A stretch of 64,000 nucleotides of DNA from Escherichia coli (GTDB taxonomy: Bacteria; Pseudomonadota; Gammaproteobacteria; Enterobacterales; Enterobacteriaceae). Below, in pieces: positions 16,926 to 24,706 of this stretch. A program made the position numbers and the translations under genes. The notes beneath the pieces are model-generated. The model made no database searches and was not told where the DNA came from. It saw nothing but the letters and a program-made list of their open reading frames with translations. The stretch's first letter is position 1. Each line of letters begins with the position of its first letter. Location: the NCBI RefSeq assembly GCF_048403405.1, contig NZ_CP183129.1. The stretch is one strand, 5' to 3'.

Positions 16926-17591
16926 TCAAATAAAACCAGCTGCCTTCCGGCGTTCGTATTCCTGTTTCAGCCGTTCAATTGGCGTTGGCCCTTGCGGGTG
17001 TTTCGCCCCTTCCAGTTGTCGTCGCACTGGCGGAACACTCATCCCGTTACCAACATGCTTTGCCCATTTCGTCAGTTGCCGTTCCGCAAGTCGTTTTAAC
17101 TCACCCTGCGTCATCTGGCGCTCAATCCCTCTGGTACGCATTTCGAGGCAGATGTGGTACAGCACAGGCTGAGGCCACGGATATTTGTCGCTTCCGTCAT
17201 ATCGCCAGGACTCATCACGCCAGCGGCGGTACTCCTCCATCACAGCATCCACCGTCAGGCCAAATGGATTGGCCCCGCTTTCTGAAATCAGCGCCACAAA
17301 CTCAGCCAGGTCCGGAGGCCATGTTTCACCCGCCCGGCAGCGGTCCATGCACTGGCGGCAGACCTGTCGGATTTGCTGCTCAGTCATCGCGCCAATCTGT
17401 GCAATCCAGAGCTTCGAAGGTGCGGCCCCGTTCTTCTGGGTCCAGCGGTTCGAATAAACCTCCCCCATGAGTTCCCACAGCTTCCAGACCGTTTCCGTCG
17501 CTGATAAATCCGTTTTCACGTTCCCACTGCTCACGTGCTGCCCGAATTTCCTGAACTGCCCGTGATGCGGTGCCACCTGGTGCTGCTGCAT
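16926..17591 (-). CDS. replication protein P-like (helicase loader)
   Basis: Segments ETWPPDLAEFVALI and YPWPQPVLYHICLEM parallel lambda P (RPFLPSPGQFVAWC, YPWKSNAHYWLV) as recalled; 5' 212 bp overlaps the O-like ORF in another frame, so start uncertain. Confidence 0.6.
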   Translation of the reverse strand: MQQHQVAPHHGQFRKFGQHVSSGNVKTDLSATETVWKLWELMGEVYSNRWTQKNGAAPSKLWIAQIGAMTEQQIRQVCRQCMDRCRAGETWPPDLAEFVALISESGANPFGLTVDAVMEEYRRWRDESWRYDGSDKYPWPQPVLYHICLEMRTRGIERQMTQGELKRLAERQLTKWAKHVGNGMSVPPVRRQLEGAKHPQGPTPIERLKQEYERRKAAGFI

Positions 17592-18426
17592 GGTTTACCC
17601 CCTTGCTGACTGGCTTAACCTGCGCCCTGACGTGATTTACGTGACGGGCGAATTTCTGCTCCCACTGAACCTGCGTGAAAACTTTCCCCTCCGCTGCCCA
17701 GTAGTCCCGGAAAGCGGCAAGTTCAGCAGGTGTAAATTCCGGCTCCGGCAAAGCCATCCCCCACAACGCAGCCCGTCGTCGAAAATCCGGCGACGGATGC
17801 CAGTCATCGACCATCGGAAATTTCCCGATGGGTTCGCTCAGTCCATCCAGGGATGCAGGTTCTGCTGCCTGCAACGGCGTACCACTCGACTCACTGGTCG
17901 GAGCACTCTCGCGCACGTGCGCGTTATGTGTGGGGTTTAATTCTTTATCTGTATCTTTATCTGTCGTGACTCGTCGTGACATGTCGTGACATATGCGTGA
18001 CTCGTCGTGACACCCCTCATTCTGTTTTCGTAATTTTTCCCTCTCGCGCTGCGCTCTCTTGCGCTCTGCCGGGGATTTCGCGGTTTGTGAAACGTTGCCA
18101 TTGTCCTCTTTCAGTACCTGGCGTTTTTCCCATCCGGTGATTAAATCTCCATCAAGTACCCGCCCCTGCATTGCCTGTAAAATTGAATCAATTACTTCTT
18201 CCGTCACATCAAGCGCACTTGCTAAATCTTCCGTCGTGACATCAATGTGACCACGTAGTGACACGCCGTGACATGTCGTGACATTTCGTGACGCGCTCAC
18301 CAGAAGGTGGATATACACTGCCATCACTGTTGCAATTGGCTGCCCTGACACCCTGGCAATTGTTCGCCACTTAGGGTCATTTGGCATGTCATGCCATAAT
18401 CTGAGCCAGGCGTTAGCCATACTCAC
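17380..18426 (-). CDS. replication initiator O-like protein containing the origin iterons
   Basis: 348-aa ORF upstream of P-like gene; two clusters of tandem ~10-bp GTCGTGAC repeats lie inside it. Confidence 0.6.
   Translation of the reverse strand: MSMANAWLRLWHDMPNDPKWRTIARVSGQPIATVMAVYIHLLVSASRNVTTCHGVSLRGHIDVTTEDLASALDVTEEVIDSILQAMQGRVLDGDLITGWEKRQVLKEDNGNVSQTAKSPAERKRAQREREKLRKQNEGCHDESRICHDMSRRVTTDKDTDKELNPTHNAHVRESAPTSESSGTPLQAAEPASLDGLSEPIGKFPMVDDWHPSPDFRRRAALWGMALPEPEFTPAELAAFRDYWAAEGKVFTQVQWEQKFARHVNHVRAQVKPVSKGVNHAAAPGGTASRAVQEIRAAREQWERENGFISDGNGLEAVGTHGGGLFEPLDPEERGRTFEALDCTDWRDD
17961..18011. repeat. iteron cluster A (5 tandem ~10-bp NNGTCGTGAC repeats), candidate ori
   Basis: Head-to-tail repeats at one helical-turn spacing, preceded by AT-rich tract 17935..17960. 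Confidence 0.65.
18231..18292. repeat. iteron cluster B (6 tandem ~10-11-bp repeats ending GTGAC)
   Basis: ccgtcgtgac, atcaatgtgac, cacgtagtgac, acgccgtgac, atgtcgtgac, atttcgtgac. Confidence 0.6.
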
Positions 18427-18491: not shown

Positions 18492-18917
18492 TCAATGCAC
18501 AGCCACAATATTTCCTGCAGGGCCACCACGATTCATCTGGTTGAAACCAGCGATCGCCACTGCGACAAAATCATCAGCGTCTCTCACCAGTCGTTCCCGC
18601 GTCTCCACCAGCTCCCGAAAATAAGCTGAACTGTGGCTGCGCATTCGGGCCACCAGCAGAGGCGGCATTGCTTTTTCGATCGCTGGTAACAACGCCTGAA
18701 TTTTTTTAACCGCATCAGGAGTGTCTTTCTCCACCCAGCGGAAAATTTTCTGGGTATTGCGAGCCAGGGCTTCCGGATGGCTGTCGTCATATAATTCCGG
18801 GAACGTCATACCAAGCTCAAAATAAGCCCGGGTTATTTCAGCTGCCGGAACTTTTTCACCGTCCGGATGCGCCCAGGCATTCATCGCCATGCGGATGTGC
18901 TCATGCCTGATTTTCAT
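18492..18917 (-). CDS. YdaT-like protein (CII-position regulator)
   Basis: 141 aa; N-terminus MKIRHEHI and C-terminus ...VAVH resemble Rac YdaT as recalled; follows the YdaS-like gene. Confidence 0.55.
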   Translation of the reverse strand: MKIRHEHIRMAMNAWAHPDGEKVPAAEITRAYFELGMTFPELYDDSHPEALARNTQKIFRWVEKDTPDAVKKIQALLPAIEKAMPPLLVARMRSHSSAYFRELVETRERLVRDADDFVAVAIAGFNQMNRGGPAGNIVAVH

Positions 18918-19182
18918 GAATCAACTCCGATGCATTTGGTGTGTTAGCCTTGAATCCAACAGGTAAGCCGTCGGTTGGATTCGGGTAAATATCAGGCCGG
19001 AGTTCATGAGGTGTAACCTCGAAATTCGTTACTTCAGCAACACGTAATGCTTTTTCAGGGCTGAATCTTTCATAGCCCCCCAGCACTCGACTTACATGCA
19101 CCTGAGATAAACCCGTTAGCTTCCCAAACTGTAGCTGGGTGATATGTTTCTCTTTTAAATAGTCTCTTAAGTTCATAGCCAA
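18901..19182 (-). CDS. YdaS-like Cro-type HTH protein
   Basis: 93 aa; HTH (QLQFGKLTGLSQVHVSRVLGG) and HELRPDIYP segment; divergent from the repressor gene. Confidence 0.6.
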   Translation of the reverse strand: MAMNLRDYLKEKHITQLQFGKLTGLSQVHVSRVLGGYERFSPEKALRVAEVTNFEVTPHELRPDIYPNPTDGLPVGFKANTPNASELIHENQA

Positions 19183-19208
19183 CCTTCTACGTTATGCCTC
19201 GAGCAAAT

Positions 19209-19223
19209 ATTAGCCCCGCTAAT
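19209..19223. promoter_or_regulatory. perfect 15-bp palindrome ATTAGCcccGCTAAT in the divergent immunity promoter region (candidate operator)
   Basis: Lies between divergent YdaS-like and DicA-like genes. Confidence 0.4.
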
Positions 19224-19283
19224 TTTAAAGATCAATAGCCAGACTATCTTTGATAATATTGGTAAAACAAATAAACTCTATGT

Positions 19284-19745
19284 ATGAAAAAAACACGCGA
19301 AGTGATTGCAACTCCAGAAGCGAGCAAGAATTTAAAAGCCGCATGGAATGCAAGAAAAAAAGAGCTGAAGCTGACTCAAGAGCTGGCGGCTGAGTTGTTG
19401 GGATTCGAATCTCAAGGCACCGTTAGCCAGTATCTGAACGGCAAGATACCGGTAAATACCGACGCTGCGCTAAAATTTGCGGCTCTGTTAAAGGTAAAAC
19501 CAGAGGACATTCGAGAAGACCTTAAAGACTTAATGAATTATGTAAGATCATCAGATACTTATGATGATAACTTTTCAGGCAAAGGATGGAGGCTGGTCAA
19601 TGAAGAACAGGCAGAGTTACTTAACCTCTTCGAGATTCTACCTGCGTCAGAAAAAGCCAAACTCCTTAACCAGCTACGTGGACTAAACAAGCTCTACGAG
19701 GAAGCCTTCGAGAACATGCTGGCACTAAAGAAACGTAACCAGTAG
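19284..19745 (+). CDS. DicA-like prophage repressor (XRE HTH)
   Basis: 153 aa; HTH (LTQELAAELLGFESQGTVSQYLNG); C-terminal LLNLFEILPASEKAKLLNQL resembles DicA as recalled. Confidence 0.7.
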   Translation: MKKTREVIATPEASKNLKAAWNARKKELKLTQELAAELLGFESQGTVSQYLNGKIPVNTDAALKFAALLKVKPEDIREDLKDLMNYVRSSDTYDDNFSGKGWRLVNEEQAELLNLFEILPASEKAKLLNQLRGLNKLYEEAFENMLALKKRNQ

Positions 19746-19777
19746 CCACCGCTCACTACCCCATCCACAACAAAAAA

Positions 19778-19801
19778 ACCGACGTCTTAGTCGGTTTTTT
19801 T
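19778..19801 (+). terminator. intrinsic terminator after the repressor gene
   Basis: accgac-gtctta-gtcggt then ttttttt. Confidence 0.7.
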
Positions 19802-19998
19802 GTGCCATAACTTCTGCAAATCAGCTGTATAACTAATATTTTTCCCTTGAAAAAACATTTACATAGTTACCAAATCAAAAATATCATACGCCATACTGTT
19901 GACTTAAAATATCCGCGTTACTAATATTTCTATCAAGAACAGCACGGCGCTGTAGGTTTTAGTTCCGCCACCCGGCGTTAAGGGGAAATGAGGTCAGC

Positions 19999-21529: not shown

Positions 21530-21587
21530 TTTCTGGTGACATTTGGCGGTATCAGTTTTACTCCGTGACTGCTCTGCCGCCCTTTTT
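21530..21587 (+). ncRNA. dicF: DicF small RNA
   Basis: tttctggtgacatttggcggtatcagttttactccgtgactgctctgccgcccttttt is near-identical to K-12 DicF as recalled, including terminator hairpin. Confidence 0.85.
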
Positions 21588-21765
21588 AAAGTGAATTTTG
21601 TGATGCGGTGAATGCGGCTATGCGCACGCGGAACAGTTAAAGCAGTAAGGCGGTATTTTACGGGCGTAACGAGCATCAACTAACCCGGCGTTAATTGTTA
21701 ACTGGTTAACGTCACCTGGAGGCACCAGGCACTGCATCACAAAATTCATTGTTGAGGACGCGATA

Positions 21766-21954
21766 ATGGAAACGTTATTACCAAACGTTAATACGTCTGA
21801 AGGTTGTTTTGAAATTGGTGTCACTATCAGTAACCCTGTATTTACTGAAGATGCCATTAACAAGAGAAAACACGAACGGGAGTTATTAAATAAAATATGC
21901 ATTCTTTCAATGCTGGCCCGTTTACGTCCGATACAAAAAGGATGTGCACAATGA
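21766..21954 (+). CDS. dicB: DicB cell-division inhibitor
   Basis: 62 aa; METLLPNVNTSEGCFEIGVTISNPVFTEDAINKRK... matches DicB as recalled. Confidence 0.85.
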   Translation: METLLPNVNTSEGCFEIGVTISNPVFTEDAINKRKHERELLNKICILSMLARLRPIQKGCAQ

Positions 21955-22142
21955 ATACAGCATTTGCACTTGTTCTGACAGTTTTTCTTGTTTCCGGAGA
22001 GCCAGTTGATATTGCAGTCAGTGTTCACAGGACAATGCAGGAGTGTGTGACTGCAGCAACCGAACAGAAAATTCCCGGTAACTGTTACCCGGTCGATAAA
22101 GTTATTCACCAGGATAATAACGAAATCCCGGCAGGTCTTTAA
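21951..22142 (+). CDS. ydfD: YdfD-like small membrane protein
   Basis: 63 aa from ATG 21951 (overlaps dicB stop); N-terminal hydrophobic helix. Confidence 0.75.
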   Translation: MNTAFALVLTVFLVSGEPVDIAVSVHRTMQECVTAATEQKIPGNCYPVDKVIHQDNNEIPAGL

Positions 22143-22234
22143 AACAGTTCCGTAATAAATATCCGGTTTCATTCTTATATGCCAGCAATGGCAGGGATTT
22201 GTTCACCCTTAAATCTGTAATGAGGTAAAACAAA

Positions 22235-24706
22235 ATGAGTAAAGTCTTTATTTGCGCCGCCATTCCGGACGAACAGGCAATAAAGGAAGAAGGTGCAGTC
22301 GCTGTAGCCACTGCCATTGAAGCCGGTGATGAACGTCGCGCCCGCGCAAAATTTCACTGGCAATTCCTGGAACATTATCCGGCTGCTCAGGACTGCGCTT
22401 ATAAATTTCTTGTCTGCGAGGATAAACCCGGTATACCCCGCCCTGCCCTAGATTCCTGGGATGCTGAATATATGCAGGAAAACCGCTGGGATGAGGCGTC
22501 TGCTTCCTTTGTCCCGGTTGAGACTGAATCAGATCCGATGAACGTCACTTTTGACAAGCTGGCCCCTGAAGTACAGAACGCTGTCATGGTTAAGTTCGAC
22601 ACATGTGAAAACATCACCGTTGATATGGTGATTAGCGCGCAGGAACTGTTGCAGGAAGACATGGCAACATTCGACGGACATATCGTTGAAGCGTTGATGA
22701 AAATGCCAGAAGTTAACGCCATGTATCCGGAGCTTAAGCTGCATGCCATCGGGTGGGTTAAGCATAAATGTAAGCCTGGTGCCAAATGGCCCGAAATTCA
22801 GGCAGAGATGCGCATCTGGAAAAAACGTCGCGAAGGTGAACGCAAGGAAGCCGGAAAATACACGTCTGTTGTTGATCTCGCCCGCGCCAGAGCCAATCAA
22901 CAGCACACTGAAAATTCAACAGGAAAAATCAACCCGGTCATTGCTGCCATTCATCGCGAATACAAGCAGACATGGAAAACACTGGATGACGAACTGGCCT
23001 ACGCTCTCTGGCCTGGTGATGTGGATGCCGGAAACATTGACGGCAGCATCCATCGCTGGGCAAAAAATGAAGTTATCGACAACGACCGCGAAGACTGGAA
23101 GCGTATCTCGGCATCAATGCGCAAACAGCCTGATGCCCTTCGCTACGACCGCCAGACTATTTTTGGCCTTGTCCGTGAACGTCCGATCGACATTCACAAA
23201 GACCCTGTGGCACTGAACAAATACATTACTGAATACCTGACTACAAAGGGCGTGTTTGAAGATGAAGGAACAAATCAGAGCGCAACTGATACTCTCTCGT
23301 CGCCAGTACCAGAAACTGATGCAGTGGAAACGGCAATTCCGGACAACGAAAAAACCGAATGCAAAGTGGAAGTCGAACCATCTGTAGAACGTGAGGGGCC
23401 GTTCTACTTCCTCTTCACCGACAAGGATGGCGAAAAATACGGTCGCGCAAACAAACTTTCTGGTCTGGATAAGGCGCTGTCTGCTGGGGCTACTGAAATC
23501 ACGAAAGAAGAATATTTCGCCCGCAAAAACGGTACATACTCAGGTTCACAACAAAATACTGGTGCATCTGACACGACCGCACAACCAGGGTCAGTAAAAG
23601 TTACCGCTGACGAAGTAAACAAAATTATGCAGGCAGCCAATATCAGCCAGCCTGACGCCGATGAACTGCTTGCAGTATCACGTGGTGAATTTGTTGAAGG
23701 GATTAGCGACCCGAATGATCCGAAATGGGTTAAGGGGAACCAGACCCGCGATTCTGTGAACCAGAACCAGCAAGAAACGGAACAGAACGACCAGAAAGCG
23801 GAACAAAACAGCCCAAATGCGTTACAAAACGAGCCAGAAACGAAACAGCCTGAATCAGTGGCGCAACAGGAAGTGGAAAAAGTCTGCACCGCCTGCGGTC
23901 AGACCGGCGGCGGCAACTGCCCTGATTGTGGCGCGGTAATGGGCGACGCAACATACCAGGAAACATTCGATGAAGAGTATCAGCCTGAAGTTCAGGAAGA
24001 TGATCCGGAGGAAATGGAAGGCGCTGAACATCCACACAAGGAGAACACTGGCGGCAATCAGCATCACGATAGCGATAATGAAACTGGCGAGACGGCAGAT
24101 CACTCAATTAAGGTGAACGGTCATCAAGAAATCACATCCACCAGCAGGACGTGTGACCATCTAATGATCGACCTTGAAACCATGGGAAAAAATCCTGATG
24201 CCCCGATCATCTCAATAGGTGCAATATTTTTCGATCCGCAAACCGGAGATATGGGACCGGAATTTAGTAAGACTATCGATCTGGAAACTGCTGGCGGAGT
24301 CATTGATCGGGACACCATTAAATGGTGGCTTAAGCAATCACGCGAAGCGCAATCTGCCATTATGACCGATGAAATCCCGTTAGATGATGCACTGTTACAA
24401 TTGCGGGAATTTATCGACGAAAACTCCGGTGAATTTTTTGTTCAGGTTTGGGGAAATGGAGCCAACTTCGACAACACGATTTTGCGCCGTTCATACGAAC
24501 GGCAGGGGATCCCCTGCCCGTGGCGTTACTACAACGATCGCGATGTACGCACAATCGTTGAGCTGGGGAAAGCCATAGACTTCGATGCCAGAACGGCTAT
24601 TCCATTCGAAGGTGAGCGCCATAATGCACTTGATGACGCCCGTTACCAGGCAAAATACGTTTCAGCTATCTGGCAAAACCTGATCCCAAATCAGGCTGAT
24701 TTTTAA
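22235..24706 (+). CDS. YdfE-like prophage exonuclease, full length (C-terminal DnaQ-like DEDDh 3'-5' exonuclease domain)
   Basis: 823 aa; C-terminal MIDLETMG and HNALDDARYQ motifs; central acidic/Gln-rich linker with C-x2-C-x8-C-x2-C zinc ribbon (CTACGQTGGGNCPDCG). Confidence 0.7.
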   Translation: MSKVFICAAIPDEQAIKEEGAVAVATAIEAGDERRARAKFHWQFLEHYPAAQDCAYKFLVCEDKPGIPRPALDSWDAEYMQENRWDEASASFVPVETESDPMNVTFDKLAPEVQNAVMVKFDTCENITVDMVISAQELLQEDMATFDGHIVEALMKMPEVNAMYPELKLHAIGWVKHKCKPGAKWPEIQAEMRIWKKRREGERKEAGKYTSVVDLARARANQQHTENSTGKINPVIAAIHREYKQTWKTLDDELAYALWPGDVDAGNIDGSIHRWAKNEVIDNDREDWKRISASMRKQPDALRYDRQTIFGLVRERPIDIHKDPVALNKYITEYLTTKGVFEDEGTNQSATDTLSSPVPETDAVETAIPDNEKTECKVEVEPSVEREGPFYFLFTDKDGEKYGRANKLSGLDKALSAGATEITKEEYFARKNGTYSGSQQNTGASDTTAQPGSVKVTADEVNKIMQAANISQPDADELLAVSRGEFVEGISDPNDPKWVKGNQTRDSVNQNQQETEQNDQKAEQNSPNALQNEPETKQPESVAQQEVEKVCTACGQTGGGNCPDCGAVMGDATYQETFDEEYQPEVQEDDPEEMEGAEHPHKENTGGNQHHDSDNETGETADHSIKVNGHQEITSTSRTCDHLMIDLETMGKNPDAPIISIGAIFFDPQTGDMGPEFSKTIDLETAGGVIDRDTIKWWLKQSREAQSAIMTDEIPLDDALLQLREFIDENSGEFFVQVWGNGANFDNTILRRSYERQGIPCPWRYYNDRDVRTIVELGKAIDFDARTAIPFEGERHNALDDARYQAKYVSAIWQNLIPNQADF

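Follow-up and report, generated by a model that had tools for sequence, protein, structure and literature searches.

The sequence analysed here, referred to below as the window, is a stretch of 64,000 nucleotides of Escherichia coli lambdoid prophage DNA. E. coli chromosomes match it at 100% identity, for example that of strain 042 (NC_017626, 1404016-1404966), in which the matching region lies inside a lambdoid prophage that adjoins ompW. The immunity type encoded in the window is found in 179 of the 5426 complete genomes of E. coli, among them those of the strains 042 and ABU 83972 and of some O157 and O103 isolates. In the phage database a single record, Rac-SA53 (KU052037), was retrieved at 98% identity, in which the genes are annotated as dicA/dicC, and a search of the literature returned no paper that describes the switch of Rac-SA53. 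The following genes make up the regulatory and replication part of the prophage:

16926-17591, minus strand: lambda-P-like gene
17380-18426, minus strand: DnaT/O-like gene
18492-18917, minus strand: gene of the YdaT family (CII analogue), PF06254
18901-19176, minus strand: gene of a 91-residue YdaS/Cro-like HTH protein, Pfam YdaS_toxin and HTH_3
19284-19745, plus strand: gene of a 153-residue CI/DicA-like HTH_3 repressor

The true intergenic region between the minus-strand YdaS/Cro-like gene and the plus-strand repressor gene is 19177-19283, which is 107 bp. The original prediction had placed a palindrome between divergently transcribed YdaS-like and DicA-like genes, and this position is correct. 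The YdaS-like label is appropriate as well, as the 91-residue protein matches the YdaS_toxin family of Pfam and is 32% identical to YdaS of the Rac prophage; similarity to DicC was also sought and none was found. The DicA-like label holds for the architecture and the C-terminal domain of the repressor only. Its sole NCBIfam match is the DicA subfamily NF007257, and this match extends over the full length of the protein, but with 35.1 bits it stays far below the cut-off of 101, and the repressor is not a member of that subfamily. A BLASTP comparison with K-12 DicA matches nothing but the C-terminal 42 residues, which are 38% identical (E = 8e-6). The N-terminal HTH_3 domain resembles the DNA-binding domain of lambda cI (E = 3e-4 to 7e-3), and it is followed by a DicA-like helical domain at the C-terminus, without an S24 peptidase domain.

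The palindrome ATTAGCcccGCTAAT, perfect over 15 bp, is found at 19209-19223, exactly where ATTAGCCCCGCTAAT had been reported, and it extends into an imperfect 9-3-9 dyad at 19206-19226. As a sequence feature it is not exceptional. Perfect palindromes of the 6-n3-6 type occur 24 times in the window, compared with 17.9 +/- 4.5 in first-order Markov simulations, and a random 107-bp gap of equal composition contains one in 4.6% of the trials, or in 27% when all spacers of 0-8 nt are counted. With up to two mismatches the pattern of this palindrome has three sites in the window, and 2.9 are expected. A significance of the palindrome by itself was therefore rejected as lying within chance expectation, and the case for an operator has to rest on its context.

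This context is formed by two further dyads and by two promoters that stand back to back in the gap, all of them predicted:

19209-19223: O1, PR-proximal operator, ATTAGC-ccc-GCTAAT, in the spacer and -10 of the PR-like promoter
19234-19248: O2, middle operator, AATAGC-cag-ACTATC, between the two -35 hexamers
19258-19272: O3, PRM-proximal operator, ATTGGT-aaa-ACAAAT, in the spacer and -10 of the PRM-like promoter
19207-19235, minus strand: PR-like promoter of the ydaS/ydaT-like operon, -35 TTGATC (19235-19230), 17-nt spacer, -10 TAATAT (19212-19207)
19250-19277, plus strand: PRM-like promoter of the repressor gene, -35 TTGATA (19250-55), 16-nt spacer, -10 TAAACT (19272-77)

The centres of the dyads lie at 19216, 19241 and 19265, which are steps of 25 and 24 bp. 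Scored against the consensus ATTAGY-N3-RCTAAT, which was derived from the natural variants of O1 alone, O1 reaches 12/12, O2 9/12 and O3 10/12. The window holds 88 sites with at least 9/12, and 7 of these 88 fall within about 240 bp of gap plus the PL-like region described below. The chance probability of two extra sites of at least 9/12 at steps of 23-26 bp from O1 is 2.5e-4 per side. Several related dyads at a spacing of roughly 23-25 bp, situated between divergent repressor and cro-like genes, are among the features of the tripartite right operator of lambdoid phages, and this arrangement is established for the gap.

The PR-like promoter has 8/12 matches to the consensus, below the threshold of the promoter scanner, so that the scanner did not report it. 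Both of its hexamers are kept in relatives, and its layout and -10 are those of the PydaS promoter of Rac, which has been mapped by primer extension. The PRM-like promoter scores 9/12 in the scanner. Its -10 ends 6 nt before the ATG of the repressor gene, a distance that is gapless in all relatives, and the repressor transcript is therefore predicted to be leaderless. A second, imperfect pair, ATCAA and TTGAT, had also been noted nearby. Both sequences are present, at 19231-35 and 19250-54, but they coincide with the PR and PRM -35 hexamers, TTGATC and TTGATA, on either side of O2, and this explains the pair better than an operator does. Relatives keep GATCAA where a -35 hexamer would be expected, whereas its partner TTGAT is not kept.

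Natural variation within the immunity type was followed in a population set that combined copies from IMG/VR and RefSeq (55-58 loci, 25-33 haplotypes). At the arm positions 1, 2, 4 and 5 of the operators only 1 of 24 columns is polymorphic (pi 0.0015), compared with 12 of 21 columns (pi 0.11) at the positions 3 and 6 and in the spacers (Fisher p = 1.3e-4). None of the 25 haplotypes varies at the arm positions 1, 2, 4 and 5 of O1. The outer ATTA of O1 and the outer AT of O3 overlap -10 hexamers, which confounds their conservation. O2 varies only in its spacer and at positions 3, 4 and 6. The centre of O1 (19214-19218) is polymorphic in all five columns (pi 0.25) and is more variable than the third codon positions of the flanking genes, of which 49 of 246 columns are polymorphic (pi 0.012-0.041; Fisher p = 4e-4). 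The commonest O1 allele among the 25 haplotypes is the imperfect ATTAGCcccACTAAT, and the perfect form in the window is a minority allele (8 of 25); a symmetric double variant, ATTAGTcccACTAAT, also occurs among natural copies. The perfect symmetry of O1 is incidental and not a conserved feature, with position 6 conserved only as Y/R and the spacer free. Natural copies carry ccc, tcc, cct or tat in the spacer and C or T at position 6. What is conserved is the unit ATTAG...CTAAT with a free centre, which has the appearance of a site for a dimeric HTH protein.

In the phage 434 operator, central bases that are not contacted tune the affinity of the repressor in vitro. The variable centres observed here could likewise be a product of diversifying or balancing selection that adjusts the affinity of the repressor, and through it prophage induction or the leakiness of dicBF, a possibility that we regard as doubtful. 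If it were true, affinity tuning would make a widespread E. coli prophage a natural experiment in switch tuning.

At larger distance, eight diverged loci from Enterobacter, Hafnia, Serratia and metagenomes, with repressor identities of 58-93%, were compared. All eight have the same order, ydaT, ydaS, a gap of 105-107 bp and then the repressor gene. In an alignment of the gaps, conservation remains at both PR hexamers (plus-strand readings ATATTA for the -10 and GATCAA for the -35), at the leftmost ATT of O3 and at the PRM -10 with its fixed distance from the ATG. The ATT of O3 is invariant in 9/9 diverged loci despite its location in a promoter spacer. A dyad ATTNNN-N3-NNNNAT is present at the O1 position in every locus except the most diverged one, from Serratia (L010), and at the O3 position in all of them.

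The inner bases of the operators differ between loci and agree within a locus (p = 0.001 in a label permutation that preserved the operator slots). The half-sites of L009, for example, read ..ACGTAT in O1, ..ACGGTT in O2 and ..ACGCAT in O3, and those of L008 ..GCGTAT, ..GCGTTT and ..GCTAAT. In L007, O1 is another perfect palindrome, ATTAATcatATTAAT, at the same place with altered arms. This variation runs in parallel with the repressors. Four loci combine the helix ..TVSQY.. with ATTAGC; the remaining loci, as well as another E. coli immunity type, combine ..VSHY.. with ATTA(A/C)N. This covariation rests on about two clades and is therefore not phylogenetically independent. The residue that varies is the sixth of the recognition helix. 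In the structures of 434 repressor-operator complexes, this sixth position contacts the inner operator bases. The relatives thus keep the layout but alter the half-sites together with the recognition helix of the repressor.

Downstream of the repressor gene, and at the start of ydaT, further elements were found:

18907-18924, minus strand: predicted YdaT box, TTGATT-CATGAA-AATCAG, with the ydaT ATG inside the spacer
19770-19803: bidirectional terminator-like hairpin 3' of the repressor gene, ACAAAAAAACCGAC...GTCGGTTTTTTTGT, with 14-nt arms that are 100% complementary
19823-19837: further operator-like site, AGCTGT-ata-ACTAAT, 9/12, carrying the third copy of CTAATATTT
19886-19900: OL2, a tentative candidate, ATACGC-cat-ACTGTT (ATACGCcatACTGTT), 8/12, 25 bp upstream of OL1
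19899-19927, plus strand: predicted PL-like promoter, homologue of dicBp of the Qin prophage, -35 TTGACT, 17-nt spacer, -10 TAATAT (scanner)
19911-19925: predicted OL1, ATCCGC-gtt-ACTAAT (ATCCGCgttACTAAT), 10/12, in the spacer and -10 of PL
21531-21582: DicF RNA, 77 bits
21766-21954: DicB, 90% identical to the K-12 protein

The PL-like promoter, situated about 166 bp beyond the stop codon of the repressor gene, aligns together with its leader to dicBp of K-12, and the operon behind it consists of ydfA/B/C-like genes followed by DicF RNA and DicB, so that a distal promoter in front of ydfABC-dicF-dicB, as known from the DicA system, is present here too. Candidate operators related to those of the gap, as expected for the PL promoter of a lambdoid phage, are also found at this place, with OL1 at 10/12 and OL2 weaker at 8/12. 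OL1 shows the same pattern of polymorphism as O1: its right arm is invariant, and its variable columns are those of the spacer and of positions 3 and 6. When each locus was probed with its own O1, the best downstream match fell in an equivalent PL-like promoter in 7 of the 8 relatives, the exception being L010. In these relatives, as in the window, the promoter that contains the dyad lies 117-166 bp past the repressor stop. At the locus-specific nucleotides OL1 agrees with the O1 of the same locus in 10/11 positions each in L008 and L005, in 6/11 in the window and in 5-8/11 in the others, a comparison that is biased as OL1 was chosen by its similarity to O1. One step further upstream, about 24-25 bp from OL2, the weight matrix and inspection by eye gave no convincing match for a third OL site. 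The assignment of the PL operators is softer than that of the gap dyads because they are degenerate: a weight matrix built from the OR half-sites gives OL1 only 5.5 bits, whereas chance matches at 21814, 22250, 28717 and 40692 score 13-14 bits. Locus-specific probes and the degenerate consensus were used in place of this uninformative scan.

Four characterised systems are the nearest known ones and guide the interpretation. In Rac, primer extension and mutagenesis have identified PydaS as TTGACA/TAATAT. The inverted repeats footprinted by RacR have the form (T/A)TAGGC-n3-GCCTA(T/A), and the main racR transcript is leaderless. O1 of Rac, TTAGGCgtcGCCTAA, runs into the TAATAT hexamer of PydaS. 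The window shares with Rac the 6-n3-6 dyads, multiple operators in a gap of about 107-123 bp, YdaS and YdaT, a YdaT box over the ydaT ATG and, as predictions here, an O1 inside a TTGAnn-17-TAATAT promoter of ydaS and a leaderless repressor mRNA. The geometry thus fits the RacR operator, but the sequence does not (half-site ATTAGC, or ATTAGY as consensus, compared with TTAGGC), and the window repressor is not a homologue of RacR, to which BLASTP detects no similarity (E = 26).

In Qin, DicA binds Oc, TTGTTAGTCATAACTAACAA, which adjoins dicC. The operators of its immunity region are named Oc, Om and Oa, and three operators each have been described for dicCp and dicBp; in the K-12 sequence of Qin, TTAGY-N4-RCTAA recurs over the dicA ATG and within dicBp. 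Like the window, Qin has a divergent pair of a short repressor and a cro-like gene, a repressor with an HTH at the N-terminus and without a RecA-cleavage domain, an operator core TTAGY/RCTAA in the cro-side promoter and a PL homologue that drives ydfA-ydfB-ydfC-dicF-dicB. It differs in the operator, which is TTGTTAGT-N4-ACTAACAA there and ATTAGY-N3-RCTAAT here, with different flanks, such that O1 is not an Oc-type operator. The partner gene here is of the YdaS type and unlike DicC, and it is accompanied by a YdaT gene that Qin does not have.

In CP-933P of E. coli O157:H7, the footprints of PaaR2 and YdaS overlap PR and PRM in a 97-bp gap and paaR2 is leaderless. PaaR2 and YdaS also regulate a PL promoter that shares the -35 and -10 of PR, and YdaT binds TTGATT-N6-AATCAA. 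The back-to-back PR and PRM, the leaderless repressor gene and the PL promoter are common to both, as predictions in the case of the window. The differences are the repeats, four inverted repeats of 18 bp with the consensus GTTTAGTAA in CP-933P, and a toxin-antitoxin pair that follows the repressor gene there and not here. Finally, OR1-OR2-OR3 of lambda resembles the predicted layout of the window in the tripartite operator, the similar spacing (25 and 24 bp here), the divergent overlapping promoters and the leaderless cI. Its sites differ in sequence and are of 17 bp, compared with dyads of 15 bp in the window, where the repressor lacks the S24 peptidase/RecA-cleavage domain and the unrelated YdaS and YdaT folds take the place of Cro and CII. 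The homology of layout to these mapped systems is established by this comparison.

Considering the position of the palindrome, the spacing of the three dyads, the conservation in the population, the covariation within loci, the dyads at PL, the characterised analogues and the fold of the repressor, we think that the palindrome is probably the PR-proximal site (O1) in a tripartite right operator of the lambda style, carried by an E. coli lambdoid prophage, and we would assign this reading a probability of about 80%. The original prediction of a candidate operator is borne out in this respect by comparative and positional evidence, but the palindrome is one of three such sites, and O2, O3 and the sites at PL, about 700 bp away, had been missed.

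An alternative that we consider unlikely is that CTAATATTT represents a shared -10/discriminator module of promoters, in which case the likeness of O1 and OL1 would be promoter homology, or that the proteins read direct repeats. Indeed, the 64 kb of the window contain three copies of CTAATATTT and no more, all in the PR and PL regions (one in PR, one in PL and one at 19833), and the PydaS promoter of Rac also reads CCTAATATTTCT, which supports the view of a promoter module. The authors of the CP-933P study found inverted as well as direct repeats and were undecided between them. However, O2 and O3 lack the module and yet fit the dyad, the conservation at arm positions 1, 2, 4 and 5 is symmetric about the spacer, and the covariation within loci extends to right arms that lie far from the -10, all of which argues against a promoter module.

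It is very unlikely that the palindrome arose by chance in an AT-rich promoter spacer, without a binding role, and that regulation proceeds via other sequences of the gap. The palindrome counts in the window and in random gaps as given above, together with the minority status of the perfect allele, agree with a chance origin, against which speak the periodicity of the three sites, the symmetric conservation, the locus-specific covariation and the copies at PL.

Similarly improbable is the proposal that elements of the gap, in particular GATCAA...TTGATA, are sites for a tetramer of the CII-like YdaT rather than CI/Cro sites. This proposal bears on the second pair and not on the palindrome. YdaT of Rac footprints over the -35 and -10 of PydaS within the racR-ydaS gap, and its half-sites TTGATT/AATCAA are each one mismatch away from the hexamers in the window. 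On the other hand, a search for TTGATT-N6-AATCAA with up to three mismatches gave no site in 19177-19283 and a single strong box at 18907-18924, and the pair in the gap is everted, has a spacing of 14 nt and, as described, loses its TTGAT in relatives. The box at 18907-18924 has one mismatch and is the only match with at most one mismatch in the 64-kb window. In sequence and position it corresponds to the footprinted boxes of Rac and CP-933P, and it is predicted to be a site for reverse (PRE-like) transcription activated by YdaT. The inverted repeat GAATCCAACAG-n9-CGGTTGGATTC (18952-18982) was also considered as a YdaT/PRE element and was rejected, as it is not kept in the same-immunity loci L012 and L013. 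This repeat overlies the conserved coding motif PNPTDGLP and is probably incidental.

Least probable is a nucleic-acid hairpin, that is a small terminator or a cruciform, for which O1 would offer a 6-bp stem and a 3-nt loop followed by TTTTAAA on the plus strand: such a structured-RNA or terminator reading is disfavoured by a minimum free energy of only -3.4 kcal/mol (z = -1.5 versus shuffles), by a commonest allele that breaks the innermost pair, by the absence of a plus-strand gene that reads into the site, and by a scanner that called no terminator and an Rfam search that gave no match here.

If the dyads are operators, the switch would work as follows, where we infer the binding proteins, the order of occupancy, the activation of PRM and the transcription start sites from the analogues. 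PR would drive the ydaS(cro)-ydaT(cII)-replication operon, and PRM the probably leaderless mRNA of the 153-residue CI/DicA-like repressor. Repressor dimers on O1, which covers the spacer and -10 of PR, and on O2 would shut PR, and the repressor on O2, beside the -35 of PRM, would probably stimulate PRM. O3, inside PRM, could serve for autorepression at high repressor levels, and it is likely the preferred target of the YdaS/Cro-like protein. The repressor may also bind the related PL/dicBp-like dyads (19886-19925) and thereby silence ydfABC-dicF-dicB. As the repressor has no peptidase domain, induction by an antirepressor or by a flip of the switch is more likely than RecA-dependent cleavage.

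The architecture described here is that of the textbook switches of lambda, Rac and Qin. It combines a lambda-like logic with the dyad geometry and the cro/cII partners of Rac and with the repressor architecture and PL operon of Qin. No concept is changed by it, and what is new is the sequence specificity alone. Knowing the operator ATTAGY-N3-RCTAAT would allow heteroimmunity between prophages to be predicted and would aid the design of reporters and of derepression experiments. [quoted passage not shown] Type A and type B, together with the relatives from Hafnia, Serratia and Enterobacter, form a compact natural series for the co-evolution of repressor and operator specificity.

Two genes for cell-division inhibition lie downstream of the PL-like promoter:

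21531-21582, plus strand: the DicF sRNA (Rfam RF00039, 77 bits)
21766-21954, plus strand: DicB, 90% identical to K-12 DicB

Since both are found there, the predicted switch would have cell-division inhibitors under its control, by analogy with Qin. The immunity region itself is identical to that of strain 042, whereas the PL operon differs from it further along (window 21700-24706); in strain 042, dicB is preceded by a Rha-family gene that is missing from the window. Mosaicism of this kind around a fixed immunity cassette is usual.

Several further elements surround the PL-like promoter:

19858-19887, plus strand: sigma-70-like promoter match TTTACA-18-TATCAT (10/12, the best in the region)
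within 19823-19841, plus strand: operator-like site AGCTGTataACTAAT (9/12), containing a third copy of ACTAATATTT
19807-19821: neighbouring operator-like site (9/12)
19939-19953, plus strand: hairpin ACAGC-acggc-GCTGT in the PL leader, shortly before the ydfA-like gene

The sigma-70-like match precedes the dicBp-homologous promoter by about 40 bp, and its -10 element is overlapped by the candidate operator OL2; a tandem PL promoter is one possible reading of it. Neither of the two operator-like sites contains a recognisable -35 element, and they may represent auxiliary operators, for example for looping. The hairpin in the leader may act as a nut/boxB-like element or in processing; at the aligned position K-12 Qin possesses ACACCG-ca-CGGTGT, in which the stem sequence is unlike that of the window but the pairing is retained.

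On the other side of the switch, two elements are associated with the ydaS- and ydaT-like genes:

18907-18924, minus strand: YdaT box TTGATT-CATGAA-AATCAG, with the start codon of the ydaT-like gene in its 6-nt spacer
18952-18982: inverted repeat GAATCCAACAG-n9-CGGTTGGATTC with 11-bp arms, in the 3'-terminal part of the ydaS-like gene

The YdaT box is the only match with at most one mismatch in the 64-kb window. In both sequence and position it matches the YdaT boxes footprinted in Rac and CP-933P, and this likeness implies a predicted YdaT-activated reverse (PRE-like) promoter that would be directed at the repressor gene. The inverted repeat sits over the conserved PNPTDGLP motif and is probably incidental, because two loci sharing the immunity type of the window do not conserve it.

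Polymorphism at the operator centres, meaning arm position 6 together with the spacer (window 19214-19218 and 19916-19919, with the equivalent columns of loci L012-L068), exceeds that at third codon positions in the genes on either side: pi is 0.25 at the O1 centre (19214-19218) versus 0.012-0.041. Most of the changes are transitions, and the neighbouring contacted positions are invariant. Either tuning of affinity or a hot spot for mutation may account for the excess variation.

In IMG/VR loci (L070-L096), a second, related immunity type occurs, with a repressor about 70% identical, a gap of 104 bp and shifted operators (O1 ATTAAYyatAYTAAT, O3 ATGARYtgtRTTCAT). The recognition helix of its repressor reads ..TQSTVSHY.., and together with the type of the window it forms a natural specificity pair.
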